DNA from: Candidatus Nomurabacteria bacterium
GTDB lineage: Bacteria > Patescibacteriota > Minisyncoccia > Phycocordibacterales > Phycocordibacteraceae
Length of the DNA stretch: 64,000 nt
Direction: 5' to 3'
Assembly (NCBI GenBank): GCA_943353835.1
Contig: CALRBA010000001.1
Coordinates: 17,497-81,496, forward strand
The translations under genes were made by a program, and so were the position numbers. Position 1 is the stretch's first letter. Each line of letters opens with the position of its first letter. A model generated the notes under the pieces. It did no database searches and was not told the DNA's origin. It was given only the letters and a program-made list of their open reading frames with translations. Below, piece by piece: positions 9,200 to 26,597 of this stretch.

Positions 9200-9204
9200 C
9201 TTTA

Positions 9205-9589: not shown

Positions 9590-9628
9590 CTTGAAACCGA
9601 AAAGCATGTTATACAGGTTGATACATAT

Positions 9629-10300
9629 ATGAACGTTGAATGCGTTGGGATTATTCTGGACGGTAATCGCCGATGGGCGAAGGAAAACGGCGTATCAAAA
9701 CTGGAAGGGCATCGTGCGGGAATGGAGACATTGAAGAAGACCGTGCGATTTGTGCGTGATAATAGTATCAAACATCTCATAGTCTATGCGTTTTCAACGG
9801 AGAACTGGAATCGCGATACAGATGAAGTGTCATATCTTATGGACCTATTCCGCGAAGCGATACAGAAGGAGATGAGTGAATTGGGAAAAGAAAACGTTCG
9901 CGTACGCTTCATTGGTCAGCGTGAACGTTTCTCAGAAGATTTGCAAAAATCAATGAATATTACTGAAAAAGAAACAGTAAAGAACGAAGCGATAACATTG
10001 TGGATATGTCTCTCGTATGGCGGGAGAGCAGAGATAGTCGCGGCGGCGAATGCCGCCGCCGAGAAAAGTGTTTTGATAACTGAAGAATTATTGGCGAAAA
10101 ATTTGTGGACTTCGGAAATGCCAGACCCTGACATCATAATCCGCACCGGCGGAGAAAAAAGACTTTCCAATTTTCTACTCTGGCAATCTGCCTACAGCGA
10201 ACTCTTTTTTACCGATACGCTTTGTCCTGACTTCAACAAAGAAGAGTTTAATTCCATTCTCGCAGAATTCGCGTCTCGCGAGCGCCGTAACGGTAAATAA
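9629..10300 (+). CDS. uppS: Undecaprenyl diphosphate synthase
   Basis: GIILDGNRRWAKENG and RFIGQRE motifs of cis-prenyltransferases. Confidence 0.85.
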   Translation: MNVECVGIILDGNRRWAKENGVSKLEGHRAGMETLKKTVRFVRDNSIKHLIVYAFSTENWNRDTDEVSYLMDLFREAIQKEMSELGKENVRVRFIGQRERFSEDLQKSMNITEKETVKNEAITLWICLSYGGRAEIVAAANAAAEKSVLITEELLAKNLWTSEMPDPDIIIRTGGEKRLSNFLLWQSAYSELFFTDTLCPDFNKEEFNSILAEFASRERRNGK

Positions 10301-10302
10301 TA

Positions 10303-11040
10303 ATGGAACTCCAGATACTTTACGAAGATGCAGATGTGGTAGCAGTAGCGAAGCCAGCCGGACTGATTACGCATTCTGACGGGAGGACGAAAGAAGAAAC
10401 AGCAGAGGATTGGTTCAAAGAGAAATATGAGGGAGGGCTTGCCTCGCCGAAGCCATGCGGAGGCGGGTATGTGCATAGATTGGACCGTGATACCTCCGGC
10501 GTTCTAGTCTTCGCCAAGAACGCGTCGGCGTATGAATTCTTGCGCAAAGCATTTCACAATAGAGACATACAGAAAACTTATATAGCAATTGTCTATGGCG
10601 TTCCAAAAGCGAAAAAAGGCGTTATAGATTTTGACATTGGTCGCTCGCGCCAAGACTTCAGGCTCCGGAGCGCCCAACCGAAGGCGAAGGGCCGTCTTCG
10701 CGACGCGCTTACGCGTTATGAAGTAATAGGAGAAGTGGAAGGTTACGCGCTTATGAGGTTGAATCCGGAGACTGGCAGAACGCATCAGATTCGCGTGCAT
10801 CTGAAGGCCATTCATCACCCAATTGTTTGTGATTCTCTGTATGCTCCCGGTTTGTCCAAGAGCAAAGCGATTGGAAACAAACCGCAGTCCCTTGGGACGC
10901 CGAATCTAGGTCTCTCACGCCTCGCATTACATGCGAGTACGCTCAACATTCCACTCCCGAGTGGAGGTAGGACCACAATCGAGGCGCCAATACCAGAAGA
11001 TCTGTCGGTAGCACTCGCACATTTCCCTACAGCGTGTTAG
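10303..11040 (+). CDS. RluA-family pseudouridine synthase
   Basis: HRLDRDTSGVLVFAKN catalytic-Asp motif. Confidence 0.8.
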   Translation: MELQILYEDADVVAVAKPAGLITHSDGRTKEETAEDWFKEKYEGGLASPKPCGGGYVHRLDRDTSGVLVFAKNASAYEFLRKAFHNRDIQKTYIAIVYGVPKAKKGVIDFDIGRSRQDFRLRSAQPKAKGRLRDALTRYEVIGEVEGYALMRLNPETGRTHQIRVHLKAIHHPIVCDSLYAPGLSKSKAIGNKPQSLGTPNLGLSRLALHASTLNIPLPSGGRTTIEAPIPEDLSVALAHFPTAC

Positions 11041-11055
11041 AGTGTCGCGACACAT

Positions 11056-11559
11056 ATGAGAGTCATAACTACTGTCAATATAGAAGGGCGCGCGAAGCTC
11101 GGGATACGCCCTGGCGATACTGTGCGCGTCATTCAGAATATTGTTGAACTTAAGAAAGATCGCGGTACCGATAAGAAGGAAAAAACGATTAAGAATGCCC
11201 GTAAGCAGGCATTTGAAGGTCTCGTTCTTGCGGTCAAACACGGCGCCGAAGCAGGGGCGACTTTTACCGTCCGCGCGACTCTCTCTGGAGTCGGAGTGGA
11301 GAAGACATTTCCGCTCTATTCCCCGGTTATTGATTCAATTGAAATAGTAAAGCGCTCCAAAGTCCGTCGCGCGAAGCTCTACTTCATCCGTGAGAAGGCG
11401 GCCAAGGCGGTCCGCCGTCAGCTACGTAACGCACGCATGATGCATTTGAAGAGCGATGAAGCTGTCGCTGTTCCCGAGGAAATTGCAGCTCCGACGTCTG
11501 AAGTCGGAGCCCCGACCGAAAGCGTCGGGGAAGAGAAAAAAGAAGAAGCTGTAGTATAG
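11056..11559 (+). CDS. rplS: 50S ribosomal protein L19 with a ~50-aa C-terminal extension
   Basis: RPGDTVRV...AFEGLVLAVKHG...TFTVR...GVEKTFPLYSPVIDSIEIVKRSKVRRAKLYFIRE matches L19. The C-terminal tail contains the palindromic repeat at 11487-11540. Confidence 0.8.
   Translation: MRVITTVNIEGRAKLGIRPGDTVRVIQNIVELKKDRGTDKKEKTIKNARKQAFEGLVLAVKHGAEAGATFTVRATLSGVGVEKTFPLYSPVIDSIEIVKRSKVRRAKLYFIREKAAKAVRRQLRNARMMHLKSDEAVAVPEEIAAPTSEVGAPTESVGEEKKEEAVV
11487..11540 (+). repeat. Copy 2 of the ~52-nt double-hairpin palindromic element, in-frame in the rplS 3' extension (translates AAPTSEVGAPTESVGEEKK)
   Basis: ctccgacgtctgaagtcggag + ccccgaccgaaagcgtcgggg + aagagaaaaaag; the stems carry compensatory swaps relative to copy 1. 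Confidence 0.7.
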
Positions 11560-11580
11560 TGTTCCAACCTGCCCGGGTGG

Positions 11581-11662
11581 CGTAATTGGTAAACGCGTAA
11601 GATTGAGGTTCTTATGTCGCAAGACGTGGAGGTTCAAGTCCTCTCCCGGGCACAAAATATCA
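11581..11662 (+). tRNA. tRNA-Leu (anticodon GAG)
   Basis: Acceptor GCCCGGG/CCCGGGC, anticodon stem TAAGA/TCTTA with loop TTGAGGT, long variable arm. Confidence 0.75.
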
Positions 11663-11814
11663 AGAAAATACGGACTAACAAGGGGTAATGGGGACAGCCA
11701 CCATTGTTTCGTAAATAGTGTGGTATAATTTAATACATGCTACGGAGTGAAAGGTACCCTTTTTAATTTTCATGAAAAGTTTTGAAATTGATAAAAGAAG
11801 TCTTGAAATAGTAT

Positions 11815-11852
11815 AAAAAAACTCCCTTGACTGCACATGCAGTCAAGGGAGA
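11815..11852 (-). terminator. Intrinsic terminator for the minus-strand CDF gene
   Basis: Near-perfect palindrome cccttgactgca..tgcagtcaaggg followed on the minus strand by a T-run. Confidence 0.5.
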
Positions 11853-11900
11853 AGGCCTCGCTCCGAGAGGGGAGGAGAGCGAGAGAAGGGACTAAAACAA

Positions 11901-12536
11901 TCAGTCATCCAGTATTTCAAGGAACAAGACAACGGCGATGCTAATCATAGCAGGAGCTGCGATTAACGAAAGCACGGCATCTGCCCGTACCCACCCGAAG
12001 AGCCATCCGGTCAATCCCGAGATGACAACGATTCCGGAAAGTCCCATATCGCATAAGACATGCAGATTGGCTACTTTGTGAGAATGGCTTTGTTCGTGGC
12101 GAGGGATTTTTGAGAGGACTTTGTAGGCCCAAAAGTTTCCCAACCCGCCGATAAAGCCCACAACCATAAGCCACTCGTTTTTAATGGAGACGGGATTATC
12201 CAACCGTTCAAGCGCTTCGGAAAAGACAGATATCGCTCCGAGGATAAGGATGCCGATACCCGCATACGCGAACCACTTTTTTGCGGTACGGCCATTACTC
12301 CCGCTTGCTCTAATCGCGTAAGTGGCAACCAAGGTGGCTCCGAAGAGTATCAAGAAATCCGAAATACTATGAATAGTGTCGGACTTCAAGGTCGTGCTCG
12401 GCAGAATTTCCAAAACAAGAAAGAGCTGAGCAAAGAATATCGTAAGCGTGATCATGGCGGCTTGCCAAGTGAGCAACGCTTCTTTTTCAAGAACCCCCGG
12501 ATGATGTCCGAGACGGATTATTTTGTAGAGTGGCAT
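11901..12536 (-). CDS. Cation diffusion facilitator family transporter (membrane domain only, no cytoplasmic C-terminal domain)
   Basis: TM2 motif SDTIHSISD and TM5 motif HVLCDMGLS (HxxxD pairs); six TM helices. Confidence 0.65.
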   Translation of the reverse strand: MPLYKIIRLGHHPGVLEKEALLTWQAAMITLTIFFAQLFLVLEILPSTTLKSDTIHSISDFLILFGATLVATYAIRASGSNGRTAKKWFAYAGIGILILGAISVFSEALERLDNPVSIKNEWLMVVGFIGGLGNFWAYKVLSKIPRHEQSHSHKVANLHVLCDMGLSGIVVISGLTGWLFGWVRADAVLSLIAAPAMISIAVVLFLEILDD

Positions 12537-12664
12537 GGCACCCTCCTAGACAAGTCAAAGAAAAGAAATAACTGCTAACTGCGGAGCAGTATAACAAAAA
12601 ATAAGAGGAGAGGGAAGGGAGTTTTTGACTATATAATATACTGCTATACTACAATCACGCCGTT

Positions 12665-12922
12665 ATGACTATTCTGAAGTATTTGACACGAGTCTCTTTT
12701 ATTGGGATTTTTGTTATAGTCGTGCTTTTTTCAAATATCGTCGGCTTTGTGACCGATTGGTGGTGGTTTTCTTCAGTAGGCCATACACAAATCTTCATTA
12801 CCGCTCTGGTCGCTAAACTTGCATTGTTTTCTGGAGTGGGAATTTTTGCGGCAGTTTTTCGGTTGCGCGGTCATATATTTTTTGCGGGGCAGTCTGTATA
12901 TCGCGAGCTTGCAATTGCTTAA
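12665..12922 (+). CDS. Small hypothetical membrane protein
   Basis: Two hydrophobic helices; no other support. Confidence 0.3.
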   Translation: MTILKYLTRVSFIGIFVIVVLFSNIVGFVTDWWWFSSVGHTQIFITALVAKLALFSGVGIFAAVFRLRGHIFFAGQSVYRELAIA

Positions 12923-13154
12923 GCAAATGCGAATAGGGGCTGGTCAGCCCAAATGATTTCCAATCACAGAATACAGGGCTGTTGCCCCCAAACAGAATGC
13001 TATCCAATACGCAGTAGTTTCTAATCCATTACTCCTTTATAATCTTGACTGTAATGGGGTAGGTATTTTGCCGTCTATATACGGTGGCAAAAGAATTACC
13101 GAATTCTTGCTAGGTTCGCGCAACTGATAGAATTCTAGGGTAGTATTGATTGAA

Positions 13155-15866
13155 ATGCCGCCGCAACAAATTTCCTGGCACACAAAGACAGTCCTTCAGA
13201 TTTTCGACACGCTCCGTTCGCGTGAGCACGGCTTGACGAAAGAAGAAGCGATTGAACGTTTCCAAGAATACGGCTCTAATAAACTCCCTGAAGGGAAGGT
13301 GGATAATCTGTTCCTAATTTTCTTACGGCAATTCCAAAGTCCGTTGATTTATATTCTCTTTGTAGCGGCGGGTATTGTTCTTCTGATGGGAGAAACTGTT
13401 GACGCCCTGATCATCTTCGCCGTGCTTCTTTTCAATGCGGTCGTAGGGACCATTCAGGAAGGTAAAGCGCAAAACGCGCTCCTCGCGTTAAAAAAATTCT
13501 CCGAAACCTCGGCTACCGTACTACGAGACGGAAAAGAAATTATCGTCCTTGATACCGAGGTAATGCCAGGGGATATTATTATGTTGCAAGAAGGAGAAAA
13601 AGTTCCAGCAGACGCTCGAATTATTTTTGCCAATACACTGAAAGTTGATGAGGCGAGCCTCACTGGAGAGTCAGAGCCTATAATGAAGACCGATGCAGTA
13701 GTTCCAGCTCGCCTCGTCCCCGACTCGTCGGAGCGGGCTGATACATTGCCGGTAACAGAGCAGAAAAATATGATATTCAAGGGCACGCATGTGTTAAGCG
13801 GGAACGGCACCGCGATTGTTGTCGCCATTGGGTTCGCAACCGAGATTGGTAAGATTGCGCAGGAAATCTCCTCCATTGATACCGAAATTCCTCTGAAAAC
13901 AAATATTCGTTATCTCTCGCGCCTTATTATCGTCGTGGTAGCCGTTATCAATGTCGCGCTGATTGTTATCGGCGTTCTTTCAGGCAAATCGCTTAAAGAG
14001 ATGTTTACCACCGCAGTGGCGCTTTCGGTCTCCATCATCCCCGAAGGGCTCCCTATCGTTATGACGCTTGTTCTGGCAACTGGCGTATGGAGAATGTCAA
14101 AGCGCAACGTATTGGTAAAGCGGCTACAAGCAGTGGAAGCGTTGGGGCAGACGAAAATAATCGCGGTAGATAAGACCGGGACATTGACCAGAAACGAAAT
14201 GTTGCTCCAGCGCGTATACATTGACGGCAAAAATTTTGAAATCACAGGCAACGGGTACGAGCCGAAAGGAGAAGCAATTTTTGACGGTGAAGTCATTAAC
14301 CCCTTGAACCACCCGGAACTGCTTTTCAGCGGGAGGATCGCGGCGTTCTGTGCGAGCGCTCGGCTCTCTTTTTTTGAAGAAACGGGTATGTGGAAGATCG
14401 CGGGAGACCCAACCGAAGCGGCGATACTAGTGTTCTCTGAAAAAATTGGATTCCGCCACGACATGTTAGAAAAGGAAACACCGAAAATCTTTGAACTGCC
14501 GTTCGATTATCGGAGAAAATATCATGCCGTCATTCGCTCCGTTGACGAGAAAAATTTCCTTACTGTCGTCGGCGCACCGGAGAACGTGCTTAGGCTTTGC
14601 AAAAAATCCTGGCACAAGGAAGGAACAAAGACGCTTACCGAGGAAAAGAAAAAAGAGCTAGAGGCGGTATTCCACAGATTCGCGCGCAGCGGCTTCAGAG
14701 TAGTCGCGTACGCCGTCAATCTTGATACCGAACGGGTCGTAGACAAAGAAGCGCTACCTCCGCTCGCGTTCGTCGGGTTCTTCGGCATAAAGGATGCTCT
14801 CCGTGGTGAAGTGAAAGAAGCGATGCAGAGAGTAAGAGAGGCGGGTATGCGTGTGGTGATGATCACGGGCGATCATCGCCTCACTGCGCAGGCAATCGCG
14901 AAAGAGGCGGACATTTGGCGAGAAGGCGATTACATCCTCACCGGAGAAGACATTGATATTATGTCCGACGAGGAACTCGCAGAAAAACTCGCCCGCACCA
15001 CCGTCTTTGCGCGTGTTACTCCGGACCACAAGCTCCGCATCATTCAGGCATATCGCAAACGAGGAGAAATTGTGGCCATGACCGGAGACGGCGTGAATGA
15101 CGCCCCGTCGCTTGTCGCCGCCGACCTTGGCGTGGCAATGGGAAAAATTGGCACCGAGGTGGCGAAGGAGGCCGCTGATATCGTCCTTCTGGACGACAAT
15201 TTCGCCAGCATCGTCTCGGCCGCCGAGGAAGGTCGGAGTATTTATAAGACGGTTAAGAAGGTTCTTACATTCCTTTTCTCTACCAGTATAGGAGAGGTGA
15301 TTAATATCATGGGCGCACTCTTTTTACGTTGGCCGATCCCGCTCCTGCCGTCGCAGATTATCTGGCTCAATTTTGTCACCGGCGGATTCCTGACGGCAGC
15401 CCTTGCTATGGAGCCAAAGGAGCAAGGTCTTCTGCACGGAGCATTTGAAAAACAGAAGAAATGGATTATAGACGGCTTTATGACGCGGCGTATGTTGCTC
15501 TTGGCTCCTGTGATGGGGCTTGGAACGCTCTATCTCTTCAGCCTATATTTTGAAACTGACCTTACCAAAGCCTGGACTATGGCGCTCACGACTATGGCCG
15601 TCTTCCAGTGGTTTAATGCGTGGAATTGCAGGTCGGAGAGTAAATCTATTTTTCAGATGAATCCGTTTTCTAACAGATACCTCGTCGGCGCGACCACTCT
15701 CGTCGTTTTCCTGCAGTTGTTCGCAGTCTATAATCCGTTTATGCAGAAAGTCCTGCACACCACACCACTTTCGTTCTCAGAATGGAGCATACTTGTTTCA
15801 GTCGCCGCGTTAGTCATTTTGGTTGAGGAGATACGTAAATTCTTTTACCGAAGACAGTTAATTTAA
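13155..15866 (+). CDS. Cation-transporting P-type ATPase (P2-type, Ca2+/cation pump-like)
   Basis: DKTGTLT phosphorylation motif, TGDGVNDAPSL hinge, PEGLP motif, and an N-terminal Cation_ATPase_N-like segment. Confidence 0.9.
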   Translation: MPPQQISWHTKTVLQIFDTLRSREHGLTKEEAIERFQEYGSNKLPEGKVDNLFLIFLRQFQSPLIYILFVAAGIVLLMGETVDALIIFAVLLFNAVVGTIQEGKAQNALLALKKFSETSATVLRDGKEIIVLDTEVMPGDIIMLQEGEKVPADARIIFANTLKVDEASLTGESEPIMKTDAVVPARLVPDSSERADTLPVTEQKNMIFKGTHVLSGNGTAIVVAIGFATEIGKIAQEISSIDTEIPLKTNIRYLSRLIIVVVAVINVALIVIGVLSGKSLKEMFTTAVALSVSIIPEGLPIVMTLVLATGVWRMSKRNVLVKRLQAVEALGQTKIIAVDKTGTLTRNEMLLQRVYIDGKNFEITGNGYEPKGEAIFDGEVINPLNHPELLFSGRIAAFCASARLSFFEETGMWKIAGDPTEAAILVFSEKIGFRHDMLEKETPKIFELPFDYRRKYHAVIRSVDEKNFLTVVGAPENVLRLCKKSWHKEGTKTLTEEKKKELEAVFHRFARSGFRVVAYAVNLDTERVVDKEALPPLAFVGFFGIKDALRGEVKEAMQRVREAGMRVVMITGDHRLTAQAIAKEADIWREGDYILTGEDIDIMSDEELAEKLARTTVFARVTPDHKLRIIQAYRKRGEIVAMTGDGVNDAPSLVAADLGVAMGKIGTEVAKEAADIVLLDDNFASIVSAAEEGRSIYKTVKKVLTFLFSTSIGEVINIMGALFLRWPIPLLPSQIIWLNFVTGGFLTAALAMEPKEQGLLHGAFEKQKKWIIDGFMTRRMLLLAPVMGLGTLYLFSLYFETDLTKAWTMALTTMAVFQWFNAWNCRSESKSIFQMNPFSNRYLVGATTLVVFLQLFAVYNPFMQKVLHTTPLSFSEWSILVSVAALVILVEEIRKFFYRRQLI

Positions 15867-15918
15867 AAAGTTCCCTACATAGGCGCGCAAAGTGTATAAT
15901 TATGGCACAAAAGATAAG

Positions 15919-15946
15919 GGCTCGAACAACATGTTGTTCGAGCCCT
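15919..15946. terminator. Bidirectional intrinsic terminator
   Basis: Perfect palindrome ggctcgaacaacatgttgttcgagcc between the convergent ATPase gene and a small minus-strand ORF. Confidence 0.5.
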
Positions 15947-15963
15947 GTTTGGATCAGTGGAGC

Positions 15964-16137
15964 TCAGCGAGCCCCGAAGACCCAGTCCCAGTTAATCGGA
16001 AACATCAGACAGATTACGGCGAATACGAATCCTACCGCAAACCACATCAAATCATTGCGAGTTAAATTGCCTGCAAGCGGAACTCGCTCGCCCCACCAGT
16101 CCCGACGGAACTGGTTAATTCGGTAGTCCTTACTCAT
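15964..16137 (-). CDS. Small membrane peptide (57 aa) not present in the ORF track
   Basis: ATG preceded by GGAGA, hydrophobic core FAVGFVFAVICLMFP, and it ends at the palindrome. Confidence 0.35.
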   Translation of the reverse strand: MSKDYRINQFRRDWWGERVPLAGNLTRNDLMWFAVGFVFAVICLMFPINWDWVFGAR

Positions 16138-16227
16138 TTTTTTCTCCGGTTATGAACCTGTTAGTTAGTATAGCACCATTGCTCTAAAAAGTCAATAGAC
16201 GCTAAAAGTGATGTATAATAAGCCCAT

Positions 16228-16761
16228 ATGCTCTACACCGGCAAAGGGGATAAAGGAACAACGACGACATTTGGCTGTAATCAACAGCGAATATCAAAGT
16301 CGTCTGAATTACCCGAGGCGCTCGGCACGCTGGACGAACTAAATACTTTTATAGGGTTCGTGAAGATGCGCGCGATAGATTCTCCGCGCATTGCGATTAC
16401 GCTACGAAAAGTACAGGAGAATCTTTTCATTATTCAAGCGGAGACGGCAGGGGCAGATAAAAGATTGAAAGATGGTTCAGTAGAAGAGATTGGGAAAATA
16501 GTGAATGATATAGAAAAAGAAATTCCACCGATAAAGGGGTTCTCTATTGCCGGCGGGACGGAACTTTCTGCTCTCTTGGACGTCGCGCGGACGCTCTCGC
16601 GCCGAGCCGAGCGGCGCGTTATTGCGGTGAAAGAGCTTGGCTTGCGTGAACTCACTCCAGAGACGATGGCGTATATGAATCGTCTCTCCTCGCTCCTCTT
16701 CGCGCTCGCGCGCCTCGCCAATCACCTCGCTGGTGTGAAAGAAGAAAATCCGAAGTATTAG
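16228..16761 (+). CDS. PduO-type ATP:cob(I)alamin adenosyltransferase-like protein
   Basis: N-terminal YTGKGDKGTTTTFG signature of the PduO/MMAB family; ~177 aa. Confidence 0.75.
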   Translation: MLYTGKGDKGTTTTFGCNQQRISKSSELPEALGTLDELNTFIGFVKMRAIDSPRIAITLRKVQENLFIIQAETAGADKRLKDGSVEEIGKIVNDIEKEIPPIKGFSIAGGTELSALLDVARTLSRRAERRVIAVKELGLRELTPETMAYMNRLSSLLFALARLANHLAGVKEENPKY

Positions 16762-16800
16762 CGCGCGTCCCGCCAAGGCGGGACGCGCGTATTTCGTGTT
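16762..16800 (+). terminator. Intrinsic terminator (hairpin cgcgtcccgccaaggcgggacgcg + T-rich tail)
   Basis: GC-rich hairpin followed by tatttcgtgttttcg. Confidence 0.55.
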
Positions 16801-16856
16801 TTCGTGTTATAAAAAATATGTGCCCGCCTACGTTAAAACTACGGCGAGGCAAGCGT

Positions 16857-16933
16857 GGTGGTCGTAGCTCAATTGGTAGAGCATCTGCCTGTGGCGCAGA
16901 AGGTTGTGGGATCGTGACCCATCGACCACCCCA
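16857..16933 (+). tRNA. tRNA-His (anticodon GTG) with genomically encoded G-1 and 3' CCA
   Basis: Acceptor GTGGTCG/CGACCAC, extra 5' G opposite C73, anticodon loop CTGTGGC, and CCA present in the DNA. Confidence 0.8.
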
Positions 16934-16966
16934 GCAATTTTTATCGGCGAGTGATATCATTTACGA

Positions 16967-17608
16967 ATGAAAAGCTTATTTTTGGGCATACTATTCATCC
17001 TGTTCGTAGGCATAGGCGGATTTATGTATCGGAACGCCGTTGAATATCCGACACGTCCGATAGCGTGTCAGCTTGACGCGAAGGTGTGCCCAGACGGTAC
17101 AAGCGTTGCGCGCACAGGAAGCGACTGCTCGTTCCCAGTGTGTTCGTCTCCGAATGTTTCTCTCTCTGATATAGGTGTCGCATACGCTGTGCCTGACGGC
17201 TTCGTTCCCGCAGAATTGCCAGACTCTACGAGCGTTGTCGCATACGAGAAGCCGTCAGACGGTTTGAGCTCGGCTAGTATTATCGTCCGACGTTATTCAA
17301 TTGACGCATCTTCAACACCTCTCTCCGTCATTAAACAGACTGCAATCGGCGGAGCCTCCGGAGCTCCTGTGCCGACAACGGCATTTTCATCAACCGTTAT
17401 CGGGGGACATCGCTTCACGATTGTTTCTATAGAACGTTTTGAAGCTGTGATTAACACCGCGTATTATCTGGCGCGCGGTTCTGATGTACTGCGTTTTGAC
17501 GCGATTGACAGAGAGGTTATAAATTGGACGGAGCCGAATCTAGACGTATCAAAGCTCACTGCGCACTCTGCGCTAATGGGTCTTCTCACAACCCTGCAAG
17601 GGGGGTAA
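16967..17608 (+). CDS. Hypothetical secreted/membrane-anchored protein
   Basis: N-terminal hydrophobic helix; Cys-containing N-terminal region. Confidence 0.4.
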   Translation: MKSLFLGILFILFVGIGGFMYRNAVEYPTRPIACQLDAKVCPDGTSVARTGSDCSFPVCSSPNVSLSDIGVAYAVPDGFVPAELPDSTSVVAYEKPSDGLSSASIIVRRYSIDASSTPLSVIKQTAIGGASGAPVPTTAFSSTVIGGHRFTIVSIERFEAVINTAYYLARGSDVLRFDAIDREVINWTEPNLDVSKLTAHSALMGLLTTLQGG

Positions 17609-17619
17609 TATATACACAT

Positions 17620-18420
17620 ATGAACAACAATTCACTTTATGAAATATTTGACAATGGAGGCGTGCGCATAGCGATTATCGGTGCACTCTCTATCCTCGCT
17701 CTCTTTCTACTCGCAGAGACGATAAATATAGCAGCGAACTTCGGTCGGTCGGGAGTACCGGCGACAGACACGGTTACCGTTCAGGGCGACGGACAGGCGA
17801 CTCTACCGCCGGATGTCGCGAAAATCTCATTCACCGTGGATAATACTTCTGCGACGGTTGCACAGGCACAAGACGCGACTACGAAGCAGGCGAACGCTGT
17901 GATTGAGTTCGTTAAGAAACAGGGAGTTGACGATAAAGATGTGAAAACGCTCTCATATAACATCTCTCCGCAGTATTCGTACCCGAACCCGTGTCAACAG
18001 GGGATGATGTGTCCGGAGTATTATCGTGCACCGAAGATTACCGGATATCAAGTGTCAGAGACAATTCAGATAACTATACGCGATCTCTCAAAAGTCGGAG
18101 AGATGCTCGGCGGGCTGGGTTCGCTTGAAGTGCAGAATGTAAACGGTCCCGCATTCGCCCTAAATGATTCAACTGCCGGCTACAGTGCCGCACGCGCCGA
18201 TGCAATTAATAAAGCTAAGTCGCAGGCGAAAACGCTCGCCGACCAGCTCGGTGTTAAGCTTGGGAAAATCGTGAACTTCAACGAATCCTCTGGCGGCTAT
18301 CAATATCCGATGATGTACGGCCTCGGCGGAGACGCGTCTGAAAAGTCGGCTGTTCCTGACGTGCCGGCGGGCGAGAATACCTACAGCGCCTCCGTCTCTA
18401 TCACCTACGAGATCCGGTAG
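17620..18420 (+). CDS. SIMPL-domain (DUF541/BP26-like) periplasmic protein
   Basis: ISFTVDNTSATVAQAQDATTKQANAVIEFVKKQGV pattern; signal anchor; good SD (aaggggggt) before the ATG at 17620. Confidence 0.65.
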   Translation: MNNNSLYEIFDNGGVRIAIIGALSILALFLLAETINIAANFGRSGVPATDTVTVQGDGQATLPPDVAKISFTVDNTSATVAQAQDATTKQANAVIEFVKKQGVDDKDVKTLSYNISPQYSYPNPCQQGMMCPEYYRAPKITGYQVSETIQITIRDLSKVGEMLGGLGSLEVQNVNGPAFALNDSTAGYSAARADAINKAKSQAKTLADQLGVKLGKIVNFNESSGGYQYPMMYGLGGDASEKSAVPDVPAGENTYSASVSITYEIR

Positions 18421-18498
18421 TTGACTCCGGTACGGCGTCATAGTATGCTCTCTGTATTAGAGAGCCCGCAGGGCTTTTTTATTTAGTAACGCCCTTTT

Positions 18499-18681
18499 AT
18501 GACCTCACTATTCACCTATCTGAAGCATGTTCGCGAAGAGTTCACGCACATAGTCTGGCCGACGAATCGGACGGCGCTCGCACACACACTAGTTGTTATC
18601 GTTATCGGTATCGCGATTGCTCTCGTAGTAGCATTCTTTGATTACATCTTCGGTTCTGTAGTGAAGAGCATTGTCGGCTAA
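18499..18681 (+). CDS. secE: Preprotein translocase subunit SecE
   Basis: 60-aa single-TM protein directly upstream of nusG-rplK (conserved synteny). Confidence 0.75.
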   Translation: MTSLFTYLKHVREEFTHIVWPTNRTALAHTLVVIVIGIAIALVVAFFDYIFGSVVKSIVG

Positions 18682-18693
18682 TTCTCTCTATTT

Positions 18694-19320
18694 ATGGATA
18701 AAAACGAAACTCAGTATGAAAATGAAGTTCAACAGATGGCCGATATCGCGCCGATAGTGCGCAGTGAGATTCACGACGAGGTCACTCCGCGCGAAGAGGA
18801 TGCGCGCTGGTACACCATCCACACATATGCCGGCTATGAGAACGCAGTGGAACGCAACTTGAAACAGCGCATAGAATCGCTCGGAATGGATGGGAAAATA
18901 TTTAAGGTAATGGTGCCAACAGAAAAGAAAATAAGAGTGAAAAGTGGAAAAAGAATAGTAGAAGAAGAGAAGATTTATCCCGGCTATATTCTAGTTCGGA
19001 TGATAGTAGACGACGATTCATGGTTCGTGGTTCGCAACACCCCAAGGGTGACCGGCTTTGTCGGCTCTGGTAACACCCCCGTTCCGATGGAGGAGTCAGA
19101 AGTCGCCACACTGATGAAGCGTATGACGGCGGAGGCGCCGAAGCATCGCATAGACCTAGTGAAGGACGATCCTGTCGTCATCAGTGACGGCCCGTTCAAG
19201 GATTTGGAAGGGAAGGTGGGCGAGATAGACGAAGACCGCGGCAAGGTTAAAGTGATGGTCTCTATGTTCGGGCGCGAGACACCGGTAGAACTGGATTTCT
19301 TGCAGATACGCAAACTCTAG
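18694..19320 (+). CDS. nusG: Transcription termination/antitermination factor NusG (N-terminally extended)
   Basis: WYTIHTYAGYENAV NGN domain and a C-terminal KOW segment (PFKDLEGKVGEID...VKVMVSMFGRETPVELD). Confidence 0.85.
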   Translation: MDKNETQYENEVQQMADIAPIVRSEIHDEVTPREEDARWYTIHTYAGYENAVERNLKQRIESLGMDGKIFKVMVPTEKKIRVKSGKRIVEEEKIYPGYILVRMIVDDDSWFVVRNTPRVTGFVGSGNTPVPMEESEVATLMKRMTAEAPKHRIDLVKDDPVVISDGPFKDLEGKVGEIDEDRGKVKVMVSMFGRETPVELDFLQIRKL

Positions 19321-19338
19321 CGTAAAGTCACATTCACC

Positions 19339-19758
19339 ATGGCTACCGTTGTAAAAAAGATTAAATTACAAATCCCCGGCGGGGCGGCGACGCCCGCGCC
19401 TCCTGTCGGTACCGCGCTTGGCCCCGCTGGAGTAAATATCGGTCAATTCGTGACCCAGTTCAATGCCGCCACGCAGGACAAGAAGGGGACTATCATCCCG
19501 ATAGAACTTTCGGTCTATGACGACCGTACGTTCACGTTCATAATGAAGAATCCGCCAGCCTCGCGCCTGATCCTCAAGGCGCTCGGGCTGGAGAAGGGTT
19601 CTAGTAAGGCGAAGGAGGAGAAAGTGGGCACACTTACTTCAGCACAGATAGATAAAATTGTGGAAGAAAAAATGCCTGACTTGCGAGCGAATAGTAAAGA
19701 GGCCGCCGCGCGTGTCATCGCTGGAACTGCGCGCTCAATGGGCGTGGAAGTGAAGTAA
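19339..19758 (+). CDS. rplK: 50S ribosomal protein L11
   Basis: [29 protein letters not shown] canonical L11 N-terminal domain. Confidence 0.9.
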
Positions 19759-19970
19759 GAAAGGTCGATGGACCTTGTGACCCAATAGGTCAATGTATTC
19801 ATTGAGATAGTTTTAGAGTGAAGCGAATAACCTATCTCTCTATAACTTGACGGTCGGCACAAAATAAGAAATCGGTACGATAAAATCTTGTGCTTGCTTT
19901 TCAGTTTCCATGCGCGTACAGTGCGTCCTGGTAATTTGTTCCAAACAATTCAACCAAGAAGGAGAGAGTG

Positions 19971-20186
19971 ATGAACAAAAAAATAGTGGTAGGCAAATGG
20001 GGTAATAACCCCAACGAAGCAGAATATCTCAATGCACTATGCGACACTCTCGCGCGTGGCGACGTGAGAAAGACGCGGAATGGGTATACGCGGGCTATAT
20101 TCGCTCGGCAAGTGCATTTCAAGATGTCGGACGGTTTCCCCGCGCCTTCTACGAAACAACTTGCTTTCAAATCAATCCAGAAATAA
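19971..20186 (+). CDS. Hypothetical small protein; possibly the N-terminal part of a frameshifted gene continuing in ORF 20039..20269
   Basis: Strong SD (aaggagagagtg) 5 nt before the ATG at 19971. The ORF overlaps a second ORF in the -1 frame that runs to the terminator at 20293. Confidence 0.3.
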   Translation: MNKKIVVGKWGNNPNEAEYLNALCDTLARGDVRKTRNGYTRAIFARQVHFKMSDGFPAPSTKQLAFKSIQK

Positions 20187-21020: not shown

Positions 21021-22634
21021 GTGCTCGGGTATACTAACTGGATGGAAGATAGGATACGAAAGGCGCTGGGAGAGAATGTAGTTATTCGGCGACCACCGAA
21101 TCCGGACTTCGGCGACTACGCCGTTTTTGTAGGGCCGGAAAAGGCGGAGTCGGCTGTGCAGGCGATTCGTAGCGAGCTTGGTGAGAAAGCATCAAAAATT
21201 GAAGTTGCCGGGAAGGGATTCGTGAATATCACTCTCACGCGGAGCGCAGTGACCTTCGCCGTTGCCGAGGCCGATGCGAAGGGCAATGATTGGGGGAAGG
21301 GAGTGGGTGAGGACGGGAAGCGTATTATTGTTGAATACTCAAACCCGAATGCATTTAAGGAAATGCACATCGGCCACTTGGTCGGTACGGTGGTCGGCGA
21401 ATCTTTGTCGCGACTAATAGAAAATTCCGGTGCAAAAGTTGCTCGTGATACATTCGGTGGCGACATAGGACCGAATGTGGCGAAGGCGCTCTGGGGATTA
21501 CAGAAGAGTGGCATCACTGAGCCGACGACCGCCGTGGAAGTGGGGGAGGCTTACAGCTCTGGATCAAATGCCTATGACAGTGACACGCTGGCGAAGACAG
21601 AGATAGACGCGCTGAATCAGGCGATATATGCCGGCACTGATAGAGCTCTTATGGAGCTCTGGCGCAAAGGGCGTGATGTTTCCATGGAGGAATTTCGCCG
21701 TATCTGGAAATTACTCGGCACGCATTTTGATTTTGAATTTTTTGACAGTGACACAACTGAAATTGGTCTGCGTGTCGTAAATGATGGACTCAACAAGAAT
21801 ATATTCCAAAAGAGCGACGGTGCGGTTATCTACAATGGCGAGAGAAAGGGCGTGCACACGCTCGTATTCATCACCTCGCATAACACCCCAACCTACGAAG
21901 CGAAGGATATCGGTCTCGCTTTCTTGAAGGAGGAACGGTGGCCGTCTGATAGGGTCATCATTGTTACGGGGAACGAGCAGGCAGGGCGTTTTAAGACTAT
22001 TCTAGCCGCACTCGGAGAGCTCGCGCCTCTGCTTGCGGAAAAAATAACACATGTAGCGACAGGCTTCTTGAAGCTCGCTTTTGGGAAGATGTCTTCGCGA
22101 GATGGGAATGTCATAACCGCTTCCGATTTCATTAAAGAAGTTATTGAGAAAGCGAGTGAGAAAAATGAGGACCCGCTCGTCGCCGAACAAGTCGCAGTCG
22201 GAGCGATTAAATATATGATCCTGCGCCAATCTCCGGGCTCGGACATTATTTTTGACGAAAAGAAATCACTCTCGCTTGAAGGCGACTCGGGTCCGTATCT
22301 GCAATACGCACTCGTTCGCGCCAAATCTATTGTCGCGAAAGCACCAAACACCAAACATCAAGCACCAAACAAAATGCCAGAAATTCTATATTCAATAGAG
22401 CGCATCATTTTGCATTTCCCAGAAGTGACTTCGCGCACAGCGCGCGAGCTCGCGCCCAATCTACTAGTGAACTATCTCACTGAGCTCGCGAGCGAGTGGA
22501 ATTCTTTTTATGCGCAAGAACGCATTATTGGTGGAGACGACGAAACGCACAAACTCCTCGTCGCCCGCGCATTTGTGAACACAATGACAAACGGTCTCAC
22601 CCTACTCGGCATCCCTGCGCCCGAAAAGATGTAA
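21021..22634 (+). CDS. argS: Arginyl-tRNA synthetase
   Basis: YSNPNAFKEMHIGHL HIGH motif, C-terminal anticodon-binding (DALR-type) region, and KMSSR. Confidence 0.9.
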   Translation: MLGYTNWMEDRIRKALGENVVIRRPPNPDFGDYAVFVGPEKAESAVQAIRSELGEKASKIEVAGKGFVNITLTRSAVTFAVAEADAKGNDWGKGVGEDGKRIIVEYSNPNAFKEMHIGHLVGTVVGESLSRLIENSGAKVARDTFGGDIGPNVAKALWGLQKSGITEPTTAVEVGEAYSSGSNAYDSDTLAKTEIDALNQAIYAGTDRALMELWRKGRDVSMEEFRRIWKLLGTHFDFEFFDSDTTEIGLRVVNDGLNKNIFQKSDGAVIYNGERKGVHTLVFITSHNTPTYEAKDIGLAFLKEERWPSDRVIIVTGNEQAGRFKTILAALGELAPLLAEKITHVATGFLKLAFGKMSSRDGNVITASDFIKEVIEKASEKNEDPLVAEQVAVGAIKYMILRQSPGSDIIFDEKKSLSLEGDSGPYLQYALVRAKSIVAKAPNTKHQAPNKMPEILYSIERIILHFPEVTSRTARELAPNLLVNYLTELASEWNSFYAQERIIGGDDETHKLLVARAFVNTMTNGLTLLGIPAPEKM

Positions 22635-22651: not shown

Positions 22652-25600
22652 ATGGCAGACGGAGAGAAATCAGAAGTGTCCAAGAGAGAGGAGGCGATAC
22701 TTGCCTTTTGGGAGCGCGAGCACATCTTTAAAAAATCACTCGCGAAGAAGTCTCCGAAGGGCGAATTCGTTTTCTACGAAGGTCCGCCGACAGCGAATGC
22801 AGCTCCTGCGCTCCACCACCTCGAGGCACGCGCTTTTAAAGATGCGATTCCGCGATATAAAACAATGCGCGGGTATCGAGTGAATCGTCGAGCGGGATGG
22901 GACACTCACGGTCTCCCAGTGGAATTACAGGTGGAAAAAGAATTGGGGTTTTCTGGGAAAAAAGACATTGAGAAATACGGAGTTGCGGAATTTAATAAAA
23001 AGTGTCGGGAGAGTGTGTTCACTTATATAGATGCATGGGAAAAATTCACTAAGCGCATCGGATACTGGGTAGACGAGAAGAAAGCGTATTTCACTTTTGA
23101 TAGTTCTTATATGGAAGTGCTCTGGCATCTCTTCGCGCAGACAGCGAAGGACGGACGTCTATATAAAGATTATAAAGTTTTACCATGGTGTCCCCGATGC
23201 GGGACCGCACTTTCATCGCACGAGCTCGCACAAGGGTATCAAGACGTCAAAGACCTCACGGTCACGGCGAAATTTGAGCTTCTTGATGAGCCTGGCACGT
23301 TCCTACTCGCGTGGACGACAACTCCGTGGACTCTGCCCGGCAATGTCGCTCTCGCTGTGGGGGCAGATATTGAATACGGGGTGTATGAGGTTGGTGAAGA
23401 GAAAATAATCCTCGCCACAAAGATCGCTACAGAAAAGTCCTCGGGTATCCTCGCTTCGCTCGGCCAGACTATTTCTTCGCGACATTCGCGGCTCATAAAA
23501 GGTAGCGAATTGGTAGGTAAAAAATATAAACCACTCTACGACTTCGCCAAGAATCTTGTGACGGAAAGCGAGAAAGCAAAATTTGATAAGGCGTTTCAGG
23601 TATACTCCGCAGACTTCGTCACGACTGAAGACGGCACCGGCATAGTGCACACGGCTGTGATGTACGGACAGGAAGACTTTGAATTAGGAAATAAAATCGG
23701 ATTGCCGAGGGTACCTCTCGTGAACCCAGAAGGTAAGTTCGTTGAGGGCGTTGGATTCCTCTCTGGACTCTCGGTGGTCGAAGAATCAACATCGGTGGAG
23801 ATCTTAAAAGATCTCCAGACCCGCGGTCTACTTTTCAAAAAGGAGTCGTATACGCATACGTATCCCTTCTGCTGGCGCTGTAAAACTAGACTTATCTACT
23901 ACGCGCGCGATTCGTGGTATATCCGCATGCATGATTTGCGCGGCAAGCTTGTTACGGAGAATAAAAAAATTCACTGGGAACCGGCCTATATCCGTGAGGG
24001 ACGCATGGGGGAATGGCTTGCCAATGCAAAAGATTGGGCGATAAGCCGCGAGCGCTACTGGGGTACTCCGTTGCCGATCTGGAGAAGCTCAGATGGAAGC
24101 GAGCAACTGATAATCGGCTCAATAGACGAACTTAAAAAACACACGAAGAAATCCGGCAACACGTATTTCGTCATGCGTCATGGTATGGCAGAAAGTAATG
24201 CTAATAATTTTTGTAGTACTGACCCAATTAAGCAAAAAGACAATCATTTAACCAAAGAGGGTAAAGAACAAGTATTGAGAAAAATACATGAGTTTAAGCG
24301 CAGTGGCGGAATAGATATTATTGTCGCGTCACCATTTGAGCGGACGACAGAGACGGCTCGCATTGTTTCAGACGTACTTGGGTATGATCCCGGTCAAATT
24401 ATTTTTGATGACAGATTACGTGAGATATCCACTGGTGTGCTTGATGGTCATCCGATAAGCGAATATCGCGCTTTTTATTCAAACCTGCAGGAAAGATTCT
24501 TTAAAGAACCATCTGGTGGGGAAAATCTCACTGAAGTTAGAAGACGTGTTGGTGAGCTACTCTATGATCTAGAGTCTAAACATAAAAATAAAAGAATACT
24601 AATCGTGTCACATGGAGATGCTCTATGGATGTTACAACTCGCTGCATCAGGGAAGCCGTCTACTTCAACAACAGAATTTTCAGAAATGTTATTGGCCGAA
24701 ATTTGTGAACTTGATTTCATATCACTTCCACACAACGAGGACTACGAACTGGATTTGCACAGGCCGTACATTGATGAGGTTGTTCTCGTTTCAAACAAAG
24801 GAACGGAATTGCGGAGAGTGAAGGAAGTTATGGATGTATGGTTTGATTCCGGAGCAATGCCCTTCGCACAGGCGGCGAAAGAACGCGGGCACGAATCACT
24901 TGAAGATTTCTTAAAAAAAGTTGCGTATCCGGCTGATTTCATTTCTGAAGCCATCGACCAGACACGAGGCTGGTTCTATACTCTGCTTGCGGTCGGCACG
25001 CTCGCGGGGCGCGGTGCCGCTTTCAAGAACGCCATCTCACTCGGGCATCTCCTTGATGCCGAAGGCCAGAAAATGAGTAAATCAAAAGGGAATGTCGTTG
25101 ACCCGTGGGTAGAAATTGAAAAGTGGGGCGTTGACGCCCTACGTTTCTGGATGTACAGCGTGACTGGCGCCGGTGATTCAAAGAATTATGACGAGAAAAC
25201 TGTAAAAGAATCCGCAAAAGTTCTGGCATGGCTAGATAACAGCACAAAATTCTACAAAATATTTAATCACGGCGAACTAAAAATAGGAAAGAAGACAGTA
25301 CTTGATAAATGGATATACGCGCGTGTAGAAGAAACAGTCTTGAGCGTTACCGATGCGATGGACAACTACAGTCCGTTTGAAGCGATACGCGCAATCTCCG
25401 TTTTGTGCGAAGATTTGTCGCAATGGTATGTACGACGCGCGAGAGACCGTATGCGCGACGGTGACACCTCTGCATTGGAAACACTGCGTTACACACTGCA
25501 GAACACTGCGCTCCTACTCGCGCCATTTGCGCCTTTTATTGCGGAGGATATATATTGGAAGGTGAGGAGTGAGAACGACCCGGAGAGCGTACATCTCGCA

Positions 25601-26038
25601 GATTGGCCGGAAATTAAAAAACACTGGAGCTTATTTGGCGATTCCGATAAACAACTTGTTGCAGAAATGAAAAAAGTTCGAGTGGTTGCTTCACAGGCAC
25701 TTCAGCTCCGACAAAAGGCGAATATAAAAGTCCGCCAGCCACTCGCGAGCCTAACTGTTCCTGAAAAAATTAGTGCCGAGCTCGCGATTATTCTCGCTGA
25801 AGAGGTGAATGTTAAAAAAATAATTACCGGTAAAGAGCTCTCTCTAGACACGACACTCACACCTGAACTAATCAAAGAAGGCGATGAACGAGAGCTCGCG
25901 CGTGCGGTCGCCGAAGCGAGGAAGACGGAGGGATTTTATCCGAAGGACAAAGTGAACATAGAAATGCATCAGGAAGGTAAGTATTCTGTAACACTTTCAT
26001 CAAGCGTCGTGCGTTTTAATCTTGTCCGTGAGGCATAA
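22652..26038 (+). CDS. ileS: Isoleucyl-tRNA synthetase carrying an inserted histidine-phosphatase (PGAM-superfamily) domain
   Basis: GPPTAN...WDTHGLPVE, editing-domain region, [21 protein letters not shown] and KMSKSKGN all fit IleRS. Residues ~505-700 (nt ~24161-24750) hold MRHGMAESN...RTTETA...SHGDAL, which are histidine phosphatase motifs. Confidence 0.9.
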
Positions 26039-26597
26039 GTACGAGACACGTGCTATCGTACTTTCCCGTTCTCCGGTCGGGGAGGCAAGCACTTTTATTG
26101 TTCTTCTTACCAACGAACTTGGGCTCGTGCGCACTCTCTCGCAAGGAGTTCGTAAGAGTGGCGCGAAGCTTGCTCACGCGCTGACCACTTTCGCCGAGAG
26201 CGACATAGTGCTCGTGCGCGGGAAGGACGGTTGGCGACTCGCCGGCGCCATTCTCTCGGAGAATTGGTTCGCGAGGCTCGGCAGAGCCTCGCCTCGCGAG
26301 AGAGCCGGACGCATTTGCAGTCTCTTATTACGACTTGTCGCAGGCGAAGTTAGTGACCAAAAGCTATTTCCGATTATCAGAGGATTTTTTGATGCGCTGT
26401 CCACGCTTAAAGACGAGATGCACGAAGCCTCTGAAATTCTTACTGCACTTCGCATACTCGCTGTGCTTGGATTTGACGATGGAGGCATCCGTGGAATCCC
26501 GTCTGATTTTACACAGCCATTGCTCGCTGAAATTTTGAAAAATCGTATTAGTTATATTGCTCGTATCAATAACGGCATTAACGCCTCAGGCCTTTGA
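26022..26597 (+). CDS. recO: DNA repair protein RecO-like
   Basis: N-terminal OB-fold pattern ([28 protein letters not shown]). It overlaps the ileS 3' end by 17 nt. Confidence 0.55.

Follow-up and report, generated by a model that had tools for sequence, protein, structure and literature searches.

What is a second, complete enzyme doing inside an isoleucyl-tRNA synthetase (IleRS)? The question is raised by the ileS gene in a stretch of 64,000 nucleotides from a Candidatus Nomurabacteria bacterium (assembly GCA_943353835.1, contig CALRBA010000001.1, positions 17,497 to 81,496 of the forward strand), here called the window, whose own numbering is used for all of its genes. We are very confident that the extra segment of this protein is a whole PhoE/PspA-like histidine phosphatase of about 190 residues, nested in frame in a type-2 IleRS at the tip of its last connective-peptide hairpin. 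The gene and its parts are as follows, CP1 and CP2 being connective peptides 1 and 2.

22652 to 26038, + strand: ileS, type-2 (eukaryote-like) IleRS with the nested phosphatase, 1128 residues, an uninterrupted open reading frame (ORF)
22652 to 24151, + strand: IleRS part 1, residues 1–500, with the first half of the Rossmann domain, the CP1 editing domain, CP2 and the first arm of the last connective-peptide hairpin; pairs with Thermus thermophilus IleRS residues 10–482
22808 to 22819, + strand: class-I signature in the non-canonical form ALHH, residues 53–56, read from the sequence
24152 to 24748, + strand: nested histidine-phosphatase cassette, residues about 501–699
24158 to 24724, + strand: the phosphatase proper, residues about 503–691, delimited by comparison with free-standing proteins
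24167 to 24715, + strand: match to Pfam His_Phos_1, residues 506–688
24176 to 24184, + strand: RHG motif with R509, the nucleophilic H510 and G511; R and H are invariant in 120 close homologues
24341 to 24343, + strand: R564, second phosphate-binding arginine, in the SPxxRTxETA motif; in 100% of the 120 homologues
24422 to 24424, + strand: E591, proton-donor glutamate, in the RLRE motif; in 98% of the 120 homologues
24611 to 24613, + strand: H654, second catalytic histidine, in the VSHG motif; in 100% of the 120 homologues
24749 to 26038, + strand: IleRS part 2, residues 700–1128, with the second arm of the hairpin (LDLHRPYID), DVWFDSG, DQTRGWF, KMSKS and the anticodon-binding and C-terminal domains; pairs with T. 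thermophilus residues 488–819

An earlier note on this DNA, made from its sequence alone, had described the segment as a complete, in-frame branch-1 histidine phosphatase set inside the IleRS catalytic domain and distinct from an intein, and on each of these points it was right. In the full protein PF00300 matches residues 506–688 with an E-value of 2.6e-30 and all catalytic motifs are present, E591 lying within REISTG and H654 within ILIVSHGD. When the interval 24161–24750, which opens at the motif start T504 (position 24161), was translated alone, it scored 110.9 bits (E 8.3e-32; cut-off 21.7) over profile positions 2–180 of 194, and the segment forms an autonomous domain with the alpha/beta PGAM-like fold of the PF00300 superfamily. 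An AlphaFold2 model gave the insert a predicted local distance difference test (pLDDT) score of 90–97, and the editing and C-terminal domains were also confident. The Rossmann core of the same model (residues 38–83 and 761–814, the signature-motif and KMSKS regions) fell below a pLDDT of 50, likely as a result of a shallow alignment in which all rows were at least 63% identical.

By its sequence, the insert is a phosphatase-type and not a mutase-type member of the superfamily. The cofactor-dependent phosphoglycerate mutases (dPGM) were rejected on score (dPGM_arch 67.6 bits against a cut-off of 225, pgm_1 19.2 against 81.7, GpmB 57 against 261), and the dPGM substrate-binding motifs are not evident in the window sequence either. 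The named small phosphatases likewise stay below their NCBIfam cut-offs (PspA 58.9 bits against 350, CobC 58.6 against 162.9, SixA 35.7 against 74.5, PRK13463 52.3 against 277). A scan of PADLOC-DB 2.0 returned zero family matches for the insert or for its distant free-standing relative P0271, which is described below.

Alignment to the T. thermophilus IleRS structure 1ILE places the insertion inside the catalytic domain, upstream of DVWFDSG and KMSKS. Query residues 9–500 pair with T. thermophilus 10–482 and residues 700–1023 with 488–819, so that about 199 residues in the window protein occupy the place of 5 (T. thermophilus 483–487) at the tip of a hairpin. This hairpin lies between WGTPLPIW and DVWFDSG, and its order in the chain leads us to infer that it corresponds to CP3 (as named in PMC11685878), the last of the connective peptides. 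Its arms in the window protein read RSSDGSEQ (24080–24100, residues about 477–484) and VSNKGTEL (24785–24810, residues about 712–720) and hold no knuckle cysteines. The Zn-knuckle cysteines of the T. thermophilus hairpin are Cys461/464 and Cys502/504 on the two arms; the CxxC...CxxC pattern is kept in many carriers of the insert and lost in the window protein. Short linkers join the domain to its host and are conserved at 97–100% among the 120 homologues (K499, S501, N503 and Y505 before the domain, P693-H694-N695 after it). No Hint or intein Pfam match was found, the insert starts SGN-TYF, and H694-N695 is followed by Glu. The partly similar motifs LPKN and LPRN stand before DLHRP in IleRS relatives that have no insert. 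A mobile element (of insertion-sequence or miniature inverted-repeat type) was considered and rejected, since 23950–24950 holds only short repeats at chance level, none of which brackets the insert.

The host protein carries the sequence hallmarks of a type-2 IleRS. Against TIGR00392, the NCBIfam ileS equivalog, it scores 811 bits (cut-off 621) in a match broken into two stretches; it has a class-I signature, the CP1 editing motifs WTTTPWT and DGTGIVH in part 1, KMSKS at residues 807–811, Pfam Anticodon_1 at 885–1031 and DUF5915 at 1006–1110. NCBIfam models show a likeness to type-2, MupA/MupB-like enzymes, and its best solved relatives, 1ILE and 8C8U, are both of type 2. In the window protein ALHH replaces HxGH; the consensus of the close homologues is GIHH, and the distant carriers P0230 and P0254 have the canonical HYGH. 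The G/AXHH form gives IleRS2 its mupirocin hyper-resistance, and the Deinococcus radiodurans IleRS2, which also has ALHH, has a Ki of 6.6 mM (PMC10485003). NCBI names these synthetases "class I tRNA ligase family protein" and not isoleucine--tRNA ligase.

By every sequence criterion the nested domain is a catalytically intact enzyme under purifying selection. R509, H510, R564 and H654 are present in all 120 close homologues and E591 in 98% of them; among the far more divergent cluster representatives R509 is kept in 93 of 94, H510 in 94 of 94, R564 in 92 of 94, E591 in 89 of 94 (with Asp in four more) and H654 in 93 of 94. Within pairs that share an allele of the insert, the ratio of nonsynonymous to synonymous divergence (dN/dS) is 0.08–0.11 for the insert and 0.04–0.07 for the IleRS body.

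The architecture is neither an accident of assembly nor a peculiarity of one genome. At least two assemblies, ENA ERZ27280223 and Logan ERR3719144, have the identical protein on their contigs, and hundreds of independent metagenome-assembled genomes (MAGs) share the architecture, which excludes a chimeric assembly. IleRS and PF00300 were both present in 120 of the 120 best database matches (63–74% identity, 1086–1152 residues). An exhaustive HMMER search covered 1.84 billion representatives of 50%-identity clusters, and of its best 150 IleRS relatives 93 carry the insert, at IleRS identities to the query down to about 37%; all 77 carriers that aligned over nearly their full length have it at a common site, with the exception of P0168 and P0230. 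A scan of one genome per GTDB species gave 451 related stretches, of which 80 loci were kept, and all 80 belong to Patescibacteria (Kaiserbacteria, Parcubacteria, Paceibacterota, Nomurabacteria, Minisyncoccia) and have the insert. Many third-party MAG titles read "uncultured Candidatus Saccharibacteria"; their IleRS and synteny instead group them with Kaiserbacteria/Paceibacteria-type genomes. In a neighbour-joining tree of IleRS bodies, carriers and non-carriers are interleaved in Patescibacteria-type clades, and a large outgroup clade has no insert. This is a rough distance tree, too coarse for counting gains and losses, and is used only for the interleaving of nested, adjacent and absent states. 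From this interleaving it follows that the architecture is old and has been lost, regained or both; on the sequence record, nesting of the phosphatase in IleRS is ancient in Paceibacteria-type Patescibacteria.

That the insert is AT-rich, as first remarked in the earlier note, is clear from a GC content of 0.36–0.41 across 24100–24800 against about 0.50 in the flanks, and from a GC content at third codon positions (GC3) of 0.312 against 0.503 in the rest of ileS. The relatively recent horizontal acquisition which the note read from this has to be divided. It fits the cassette allele, which has a low GC3 and was replaced by recombination; it does not fit the insertion, for which a recent origin is ruled out by its breadth across Patescibacteria/Paceibacteria and its presence in IleRSs only about 37% identical to the query. 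Across pairs of carriers the identities of insert and body (means 43% and 75%) are nearly uncorrelated (r = 0.11), and where bodies are at least 90% identical the identity of the inserts is bimodal, either 83–96% or 37–44%, with sharp breakpoints at about residues 495–505 and 685–695. The nearest body relative of the window protein, P0004 (83%), has an insert only 37.5% identical to that of the window, and the nearest insert, that of P0003, is 64% identical. In the pair L027/L030, third-position identity at conserved residues is 0.41–0.78 in the flanks (mostly 0.5–0.75), 0.62–0.67 in junction-spanning windows and 0.24–0.45 inside the insert. Pairs with different alleles show an insert dN of 0.56–0.64 with saturated dS, whereas body dS is about 1.3. 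Fast point evolution was therefore rejected as the source of insert divergence, since the synonymous sites of the insert are saturated and those of the flanks are not, and since identity is bimodal at a fixed body identity. Lineages exchange cassette alleles through homologous recombination for which the highly conserved flanks serve as anchors, and this explains the AT-rich, low-GC3 cassette of the window. Insert GC3 is below that of the rest of the gene in 64 of 82 loci (mean 0.46 against 0.51, Wilcoxon p = 1e-7), and the gap varies widely, from 0.40 against 0.67 in L046 and 0.48 against 0.72 in L026 to the reverse in L059 (0.60 against 0.35) and L071 (0.53 against 0.42); such an uneven and sometimes reversed gap is expected when cassettes are imported from donors that differ in GC. 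Set against the age of the insertion, the exchange of the resident allele for another is probably recent (flank dS has already reached about 1.3).

Related genomes hold the same phosphatase as a gene of its own. With the window insert alone as query, a word-indexed protein database returned two free-standing matches and missed the parent protein. A profile built from 41 diverse inserts was used to retrieve free-standing relatives and brought up a large family of 180–200 residues in Patescibacteria, scoring 185–220 bits, the level of genuine inserts; JGI labels these proteins "broad specificity phosphatase PhoE". Seven contexts with an adjacent gene were picked among the top-scoring proteins on long contigs, which is not a random sample, and in all seven the free-standing gene stands between argS and an ileS without insert (931–980 residues). 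The order argS, phosphatase, ileS, recO, a CLIPPER/DUF7619-like protein and a class II aminoacyl-tRNA synthetase (aaRS) is that of the window minus the separate gene, the two immediate neighbours in the window being as follows.

21021 to 22634, + strand: argS, upstream synteny partner, an ORF with Pfam tRNA-synt_1d/DALR_1
26022 to 26597, + strand: recO, downstream synteny partner, an ORF that overlaps the end of ileS, with Pfam RecO_N; kept downstream of ileS in related loci

The phosphatase gene is within 5 nucleotides of ileS in four of the seven contexts, overlaps it by 10 nucleotides in one, lies 193 nucleotides away in one and is separated from it by a PALP-family gene in one. This last gene, for a pyridoxal-phosphate enzyme of 338 residues, stands between the free-standing phosphatase and ileS in L090 (8584–9600) and L091 (6413–7429), which are of one lineage; the PALP family takes in threonine/serine dehydratases and cysteine/threonine synthases. 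The free-standing proteins start MNN(K/Q)YFLLRHGE and end GE(F/V)RKL(T/K)(F/W)(K/N), and since both termini have counterparts in the window insert, an essentially complete ORF has been nested. Nested and free forms are interleaved by similarity. IleRSs accompanied by an adjacent gene come from at least two lineages, and nested forms are among the closest relatives of these lineages. None of the 80 nested loci showed a further His_Phos ORF within 4 kb, and no sampled locus combined the nested with the adjacent state. As the phosphatase is either tightly juxtaposed or built in, and never both in the sampled loci, we infer that it and IleRS act together. Locus L083 has a distant, acidic free-standing protein (P0271, 38% identical to the window insert) that lies away from ileS, near a long RelA/SpoT homologue and a pilin-like gene, and its location indicates that the wider family is not entirely ileS-linked.

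The two forms differ strongly in charge. The median net charge is +16.5 in free-standing copies, with an isoelectric point (pI) of 9.9 (n=116), and −4 in nested copies, with a pI of 5.75 (n=213). Nested copies in loci of 29–40% GC still carry about −3 charges per 100 residues; because nested copies are acidic at every GC level, the contrast is not a GC effect. The extra charge of the free-standing copies is distributed over the whole domain. Four loci with a basic free-standing phosphatase next to ileS were compared gene by gene.

L094, 6001–6567: basic free-standing ileS-adjacent phosphatase
L095, 6001–6543: basic free-standing ileS-adjacent phosphatase
L096, 6001–6570: basic free-standing ileS-adjacent phosphatase
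L097, 6001–6597: basic free-standing ileS-adjacent phosphatase

These proteins have net charges of +17 to +34 in 180–198 residues and a pI of 10.1–10.5. Their +9 to +18 charges per 100 residues resemble those of SmpB and IF3 in the same loci; the corresponding values are much lower, at 0.4–2.8 for IleRS, 1.7–4.3 for RecO, 1.9–6.9 for ArgRS and −0.7 to 6.8 for NUDIX. A charge like that of RNA-binding proteins in the stand-alone form, lost once the domain is tethered to a tRNA-binding enzyme, suggests that an RNA-borne phosphomonoester is the likeliest class of substrate.

Nesting in IleRS has happened repeatedly. Among the cluster representatives, four IleRS loops in all were found to house the phosphatase, which is present twice in two of the proteins. 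With the common site taken as site 1, the unusual cases are these.

P0230: phosphatase after CWFESGSMPYAQ (site 2)
P0168: phosphatase between FFVTYANID and LDxWI, where the anticodon-binding domain begins (site 3)
P0210: two phosphatase copies, at sites 1 and 3
P0253: two phosphatase copies, one at site 1 and one in that hairpin's second arm
P0254 (1395 residues): site-1 phosphatase plus a P-loop domain like nucleoside monophosphate kinases at site 2, residues about 737–869

The kinase-like domain of P0254 follows CWFESGSMPYA, in the loop that holds the phosphatase in P0230, and matches Pfam AAA_18/AAA_33 and, weakly, Zeta_toxin. It was seen in one cluster representative only and could be assigned to no specific family, the weak matches being to APS/shikimate kinase and Pnkp1 (E about 0.02–0.06 for these) and to PezT. 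The pairing of a kinase with a phosphatase in a single synthetase is odd. In the window, the three non-Ile aaRSs checked (ArgRS, MetRS and a class-II aaRS) have no such domain.

We tentatively propose that the domain is an active phosphomonoesterase working with IleRS on an RNA-borne phosphate, most plausibly a 2'- or 3'-terminal phosphate or pyrophosphate on tRNA(Ile). The presence of the two activities fused in some genomes and separate in others is a Rosetta-stone signal connecting the phosphatase with IleRS. Pyrophosphorylation of the 3'-CCA end by toxSAS enzymes blocks aminoacylation and can be tRNA-specific (PMC11559606; bioRxiv 10.1101/2021.04.30.441581). Under our proposal, such a terminal group on tRNA(Ile) would block charging and the phosphatase would remove it, with H510 attacking the phosphate, R509, R564 and H654 binding it and E591 serving as the acid, as elsewhere in the superfamily. 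As a separate protein the phosphatase would bind RNA unaided, and this would explain why it is so strongly positive; once nested, it would rely on IleRS for tRNA binding and be held beside the catalytic domain, and the cassette would be free to lose its charge. Of the substrates suggested in the earlier note (the aminoacyl-adenylate, tRNA 3' ends or a signalling nucleotide), the aminoacyl-adenylate is not a phosphomonoester and is hence unlikely for an enzyme of the histidine-phosphatase class. A more far-reaching form of the proposal is rather doubtful: the IleRS-associated phosphatase would act on tRNA ends, would be the first member of its superfamily directed at nucleic acid, and would perform a repair or quality-control step that is widespread in Patescibacteria, with alleles shuffled between lineages.

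Several observations weigh against an RNA substrate tied to IleRS. We know of no member of the histidine-phosphatase superfamily that acts on RNA ends, a literature search for histidine phosphatases in RNA repair found nothing, and the solved structures nearest to the domain are of small-molecule phosphatases, whose substrates are phosphoserine, glucosyl-3-phosphoglycerate and a riboflavin intermediate. Repair restricted to tRNA(Ile) would require a lesion specific to this tRNA, and none is known to us. Some adjacent copies are not basic (net charge −6 in L088, −1 in L092, +2 in L090). Site 3, where the anticodon-binding domain begins, probably lies a long way from the tRNA 3' end. P0128/L087, despite the same synteny, and many further tips of the neighbour-joining tree have no copy of either kind, nested or adjacent, and such lineages show that the function is dispensable for IleRS. 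The argS-ileS-recO order is conserved as a whole in the clade, so that adjacency alone is weak evidence of coupling, and a long-standing neighbour of ileS is also the gene likeliest to enter ileS by illegitimate recombination.

The main alternative is that the protein is an autonomous, broad-specificity small-molecule phosphomonoesterase of the PhoE/PspA kind, placed in the argS-ileS operon for co-expression and, as an immediate neighbour of ileS, captured repeatedly and neutrally into permissive surface loops. It would then act on, for example, sugar phosphates, phospho-amino acids or intermediates of nucleotide salvage and have no mechanistic link to aminoacylation. This is a possible, though still doubtful, account of the data. 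All of the nearest solved structures and NCBIfam models belong to small-molecule phosphatases, with no model reaching its cut-off, and the JGI name of the free-standing relatives agrees with it; so do the interleaving of nested and free forms, the lineages that have no copy, the synteny shared by the clade in general and the position of P0271 elsewhere in its genome. Within an allele, moreover, nested copies diverge about twice as fast as the IleRS body at the protein level. It fits less well with the four independent nesting sites and the duplications, all in IleRS (as seen in searches seeded with IleRS), with linkers conserved at 97–100%, with a free-standing gene so closely juxtaposed to ileS or overlapping it, and with nested and adjacent copies that are never found together in the sampled loci. 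A metabolic enzyme also needs no charge like that of RNA-binding proteins, which most free-standing copies have, nor should such a charge vanish on nesting.

It is unlikely that the domain is a regulatory module or protein phosphatase, which would dephosphorylate IleRS or another phosphoprotein, in the manner of SixA, PGAM5 or Sts, or would sense a phospho-metabolite through its phospho-histidine state, and so tune aminoacylation; one example would be the removal of an inhibitory phosphate that a HipA-like kinase had placed on the synthetase. Some toxins are indeed kinases that inactivate aaRSs, HipA acting on GltX and HipT on TrpS, and a position within the catalytic domain, held by short conserved linkers, would suit such a role, as would the kinase-like domain that P0254 adds in a neighbouring loop of the same IleRS. 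That insert is confined to a single cluster representative, however, and no kinase partner was seen in the window or in the conserved neighbourhood. The closest proteins by sequence and fold are metabolite phosphatases and not SixA or PGAM5, and the basic charge of the free-standing copies would go unexplained, as the IleRSs of those genomes are themselves basic.

Very unlikely is a role in conflict, with a cassette that counters an inhibitor or toxin directed against IleRS or tRNA(Ile) (an antibiotic, a phage factor or the effector of a competitor) and old, divergent alleles kept by diversifying or balancing selection. Near-identical IleRS bodies do exchange alleles of ancient divergence, the presence of the cassette is polymorphic, and acquisition was repeated at different sites. 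The ALHH signature of the same IleRS, a mupirocin hyper-resistance motif, points to a lineage history of chemical attack, and the NF040702 model for GNAT-containing IleRS shows that other enzyme domains have been fused to IleRS. Against this, no PADLOC defence family was matched, the within-allele dN/dS of about 0.1 gives no sign of positive selection, and the exchange has a neutral account in divergent cassettes lying between extremely conserved recombination anchors; none of the IleRS inhibitors known to us carries a phosphomonoester.

A non-catalytic structural or tRNA-contact module (a pseudo-enzyme) or an artefact of assembly or gene calling is most improbable, for although inserted IleRS subdomains can bind tRNA, as does INS in ARD2 (bioRxiv 10.64898/2026.02.03.703510), and the window hairpin has no Zn-knuckle cysteines, five catalytic residues that are almost invariant across very divergent carriers are unexpected in a pseudo-enzyme, nested copies are acidic, and hundreds of independent assemblies and an uninterrupted reading frame speak against an artefact.

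The aaRSs are among the best-studied enzymes, and here an intact second enzyme of an unrelated class sits inside the catalytic domain of one of them and is kept throughout much of a major, uncultivated radiation of bacteria. Should the substrate be RNA, the domain would represent both a new step in tRNA maintenance and a new class of substrate for histidine phosphatases; should it be a metabolite, the nesting of a domain in an essential enzyme, with cassette-like exchange of its alleles, would still be striking. Automated annotation demotes these genes through the family-level name given above. The split and nested states are ready-made experimental constructs, and the natural insertion sites mark permissive loops for the engineering of IleRS.

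The rest of the window is that of a typical small Patescibacteria genome, with a PolA fragment, RuvA, PilM, UppS, a P-type ATPase, FtsK and a Wzy_C/TPR protein. A protein of 1152 residues with a peptidoglycan-binding domain is encoded at 40610–44068. Eight tRNA genes lie in positions 1–20000 (Lys-TTT, Arg-GCG, Ser-TGA, Arg-TCT, Leu-CAG, Val-TAC, Leu-GAG and His-GTG), and there is no tRNA-Ile among them.

The earlier note had called the architecture undescribed, and we concur: literature searches for IleRS or aaRS together with histidine phosphatase, PGAM or phosphatase domain gave nothing relevant, and no NCBIfam model covers it. The insert goes unmentioned in a 2026 preprint that treats the evolution of IleRS domains by phylogenomics and structure (bioRxiv 10.64898/2026.02.03.703510). 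The architecture thus appears new to the literature, while the gain of domains by aaRSs in general is already known. On the side of the guest, the branch-1 phosphatases compared were Bacillus stearothermophilus PhoE (1H2E/1EBB), Hydrogenobacter thermophilus PspA (4IJ5), the mycobacterial glucosyl-3-phosphoglycerate phosphatase (6S2Q) and the riboflavin-pathway HFP (9MMH). They are only 21–29% identical to the window insert, stand alone and have small-metabolite substrates, whereas the window-type phosphatase is nested in an aaRS or encoded directly upstream of one and is usually extremely basic in its free-standing form. The best NCBIfam model for the insert is NF005567/PRK07238, the bifunctional RNase H/acid phosphatase of the Mycobacterium tuberculosis Rv2228c type (82.8 bits, cut-off 326). 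Here too a CobC/PhoE-like histidine phosphatase is fused to an enzyme that handles nucleic acid, but the fusion with RNase HI is end to end and not nested, and it has no link to an aaRS. Also compared were 6-phosphofructo-2-kinase/fructose-2,6-bisphosphatase and the RNA end-healing kinase-phosphatases (Pnkp). The kinase-like domain of P0254 has only the weak, non-specific matches given above, and Pnkp phosphatases belong to folds other than that of the histidine phosphatases.

On the side of the host, the type-2 IleRSs compared (1ILE, the Priestia megaterium IleRS2 8C8U and the D. radiodurans IleRS2) are represented by 1ILE with 5 residues where the window protein has about 199. Foreign domains have been gained by other housekeeping synthetases, and acquisition of the CAAD domain was reportedly convergent, at different positions in different synthetases. 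This membrane anchor is inserted in cyanobacterial ValRS, LeuRS, IleRS and GluRS (PMC4893482), and the Mycoplasma penetrans MetRS has N-terminal ancillary domains (PMC13215547). The GNAT-containing IleRS (NF040702) is a further case of this kind, to which the window protein itself does not belong (299 bits, cut-off 1999). The window IleRS resembles all three in being a housekeeping synthetase with a foreign domain and is set apart from them by four unusual traits: the guest is a catalytically intact enzyme, it is sited within the catalytic domain, it alternates with a separate adjacent gene, and it behaves as an exchangeable cassette whose alleles recombine.

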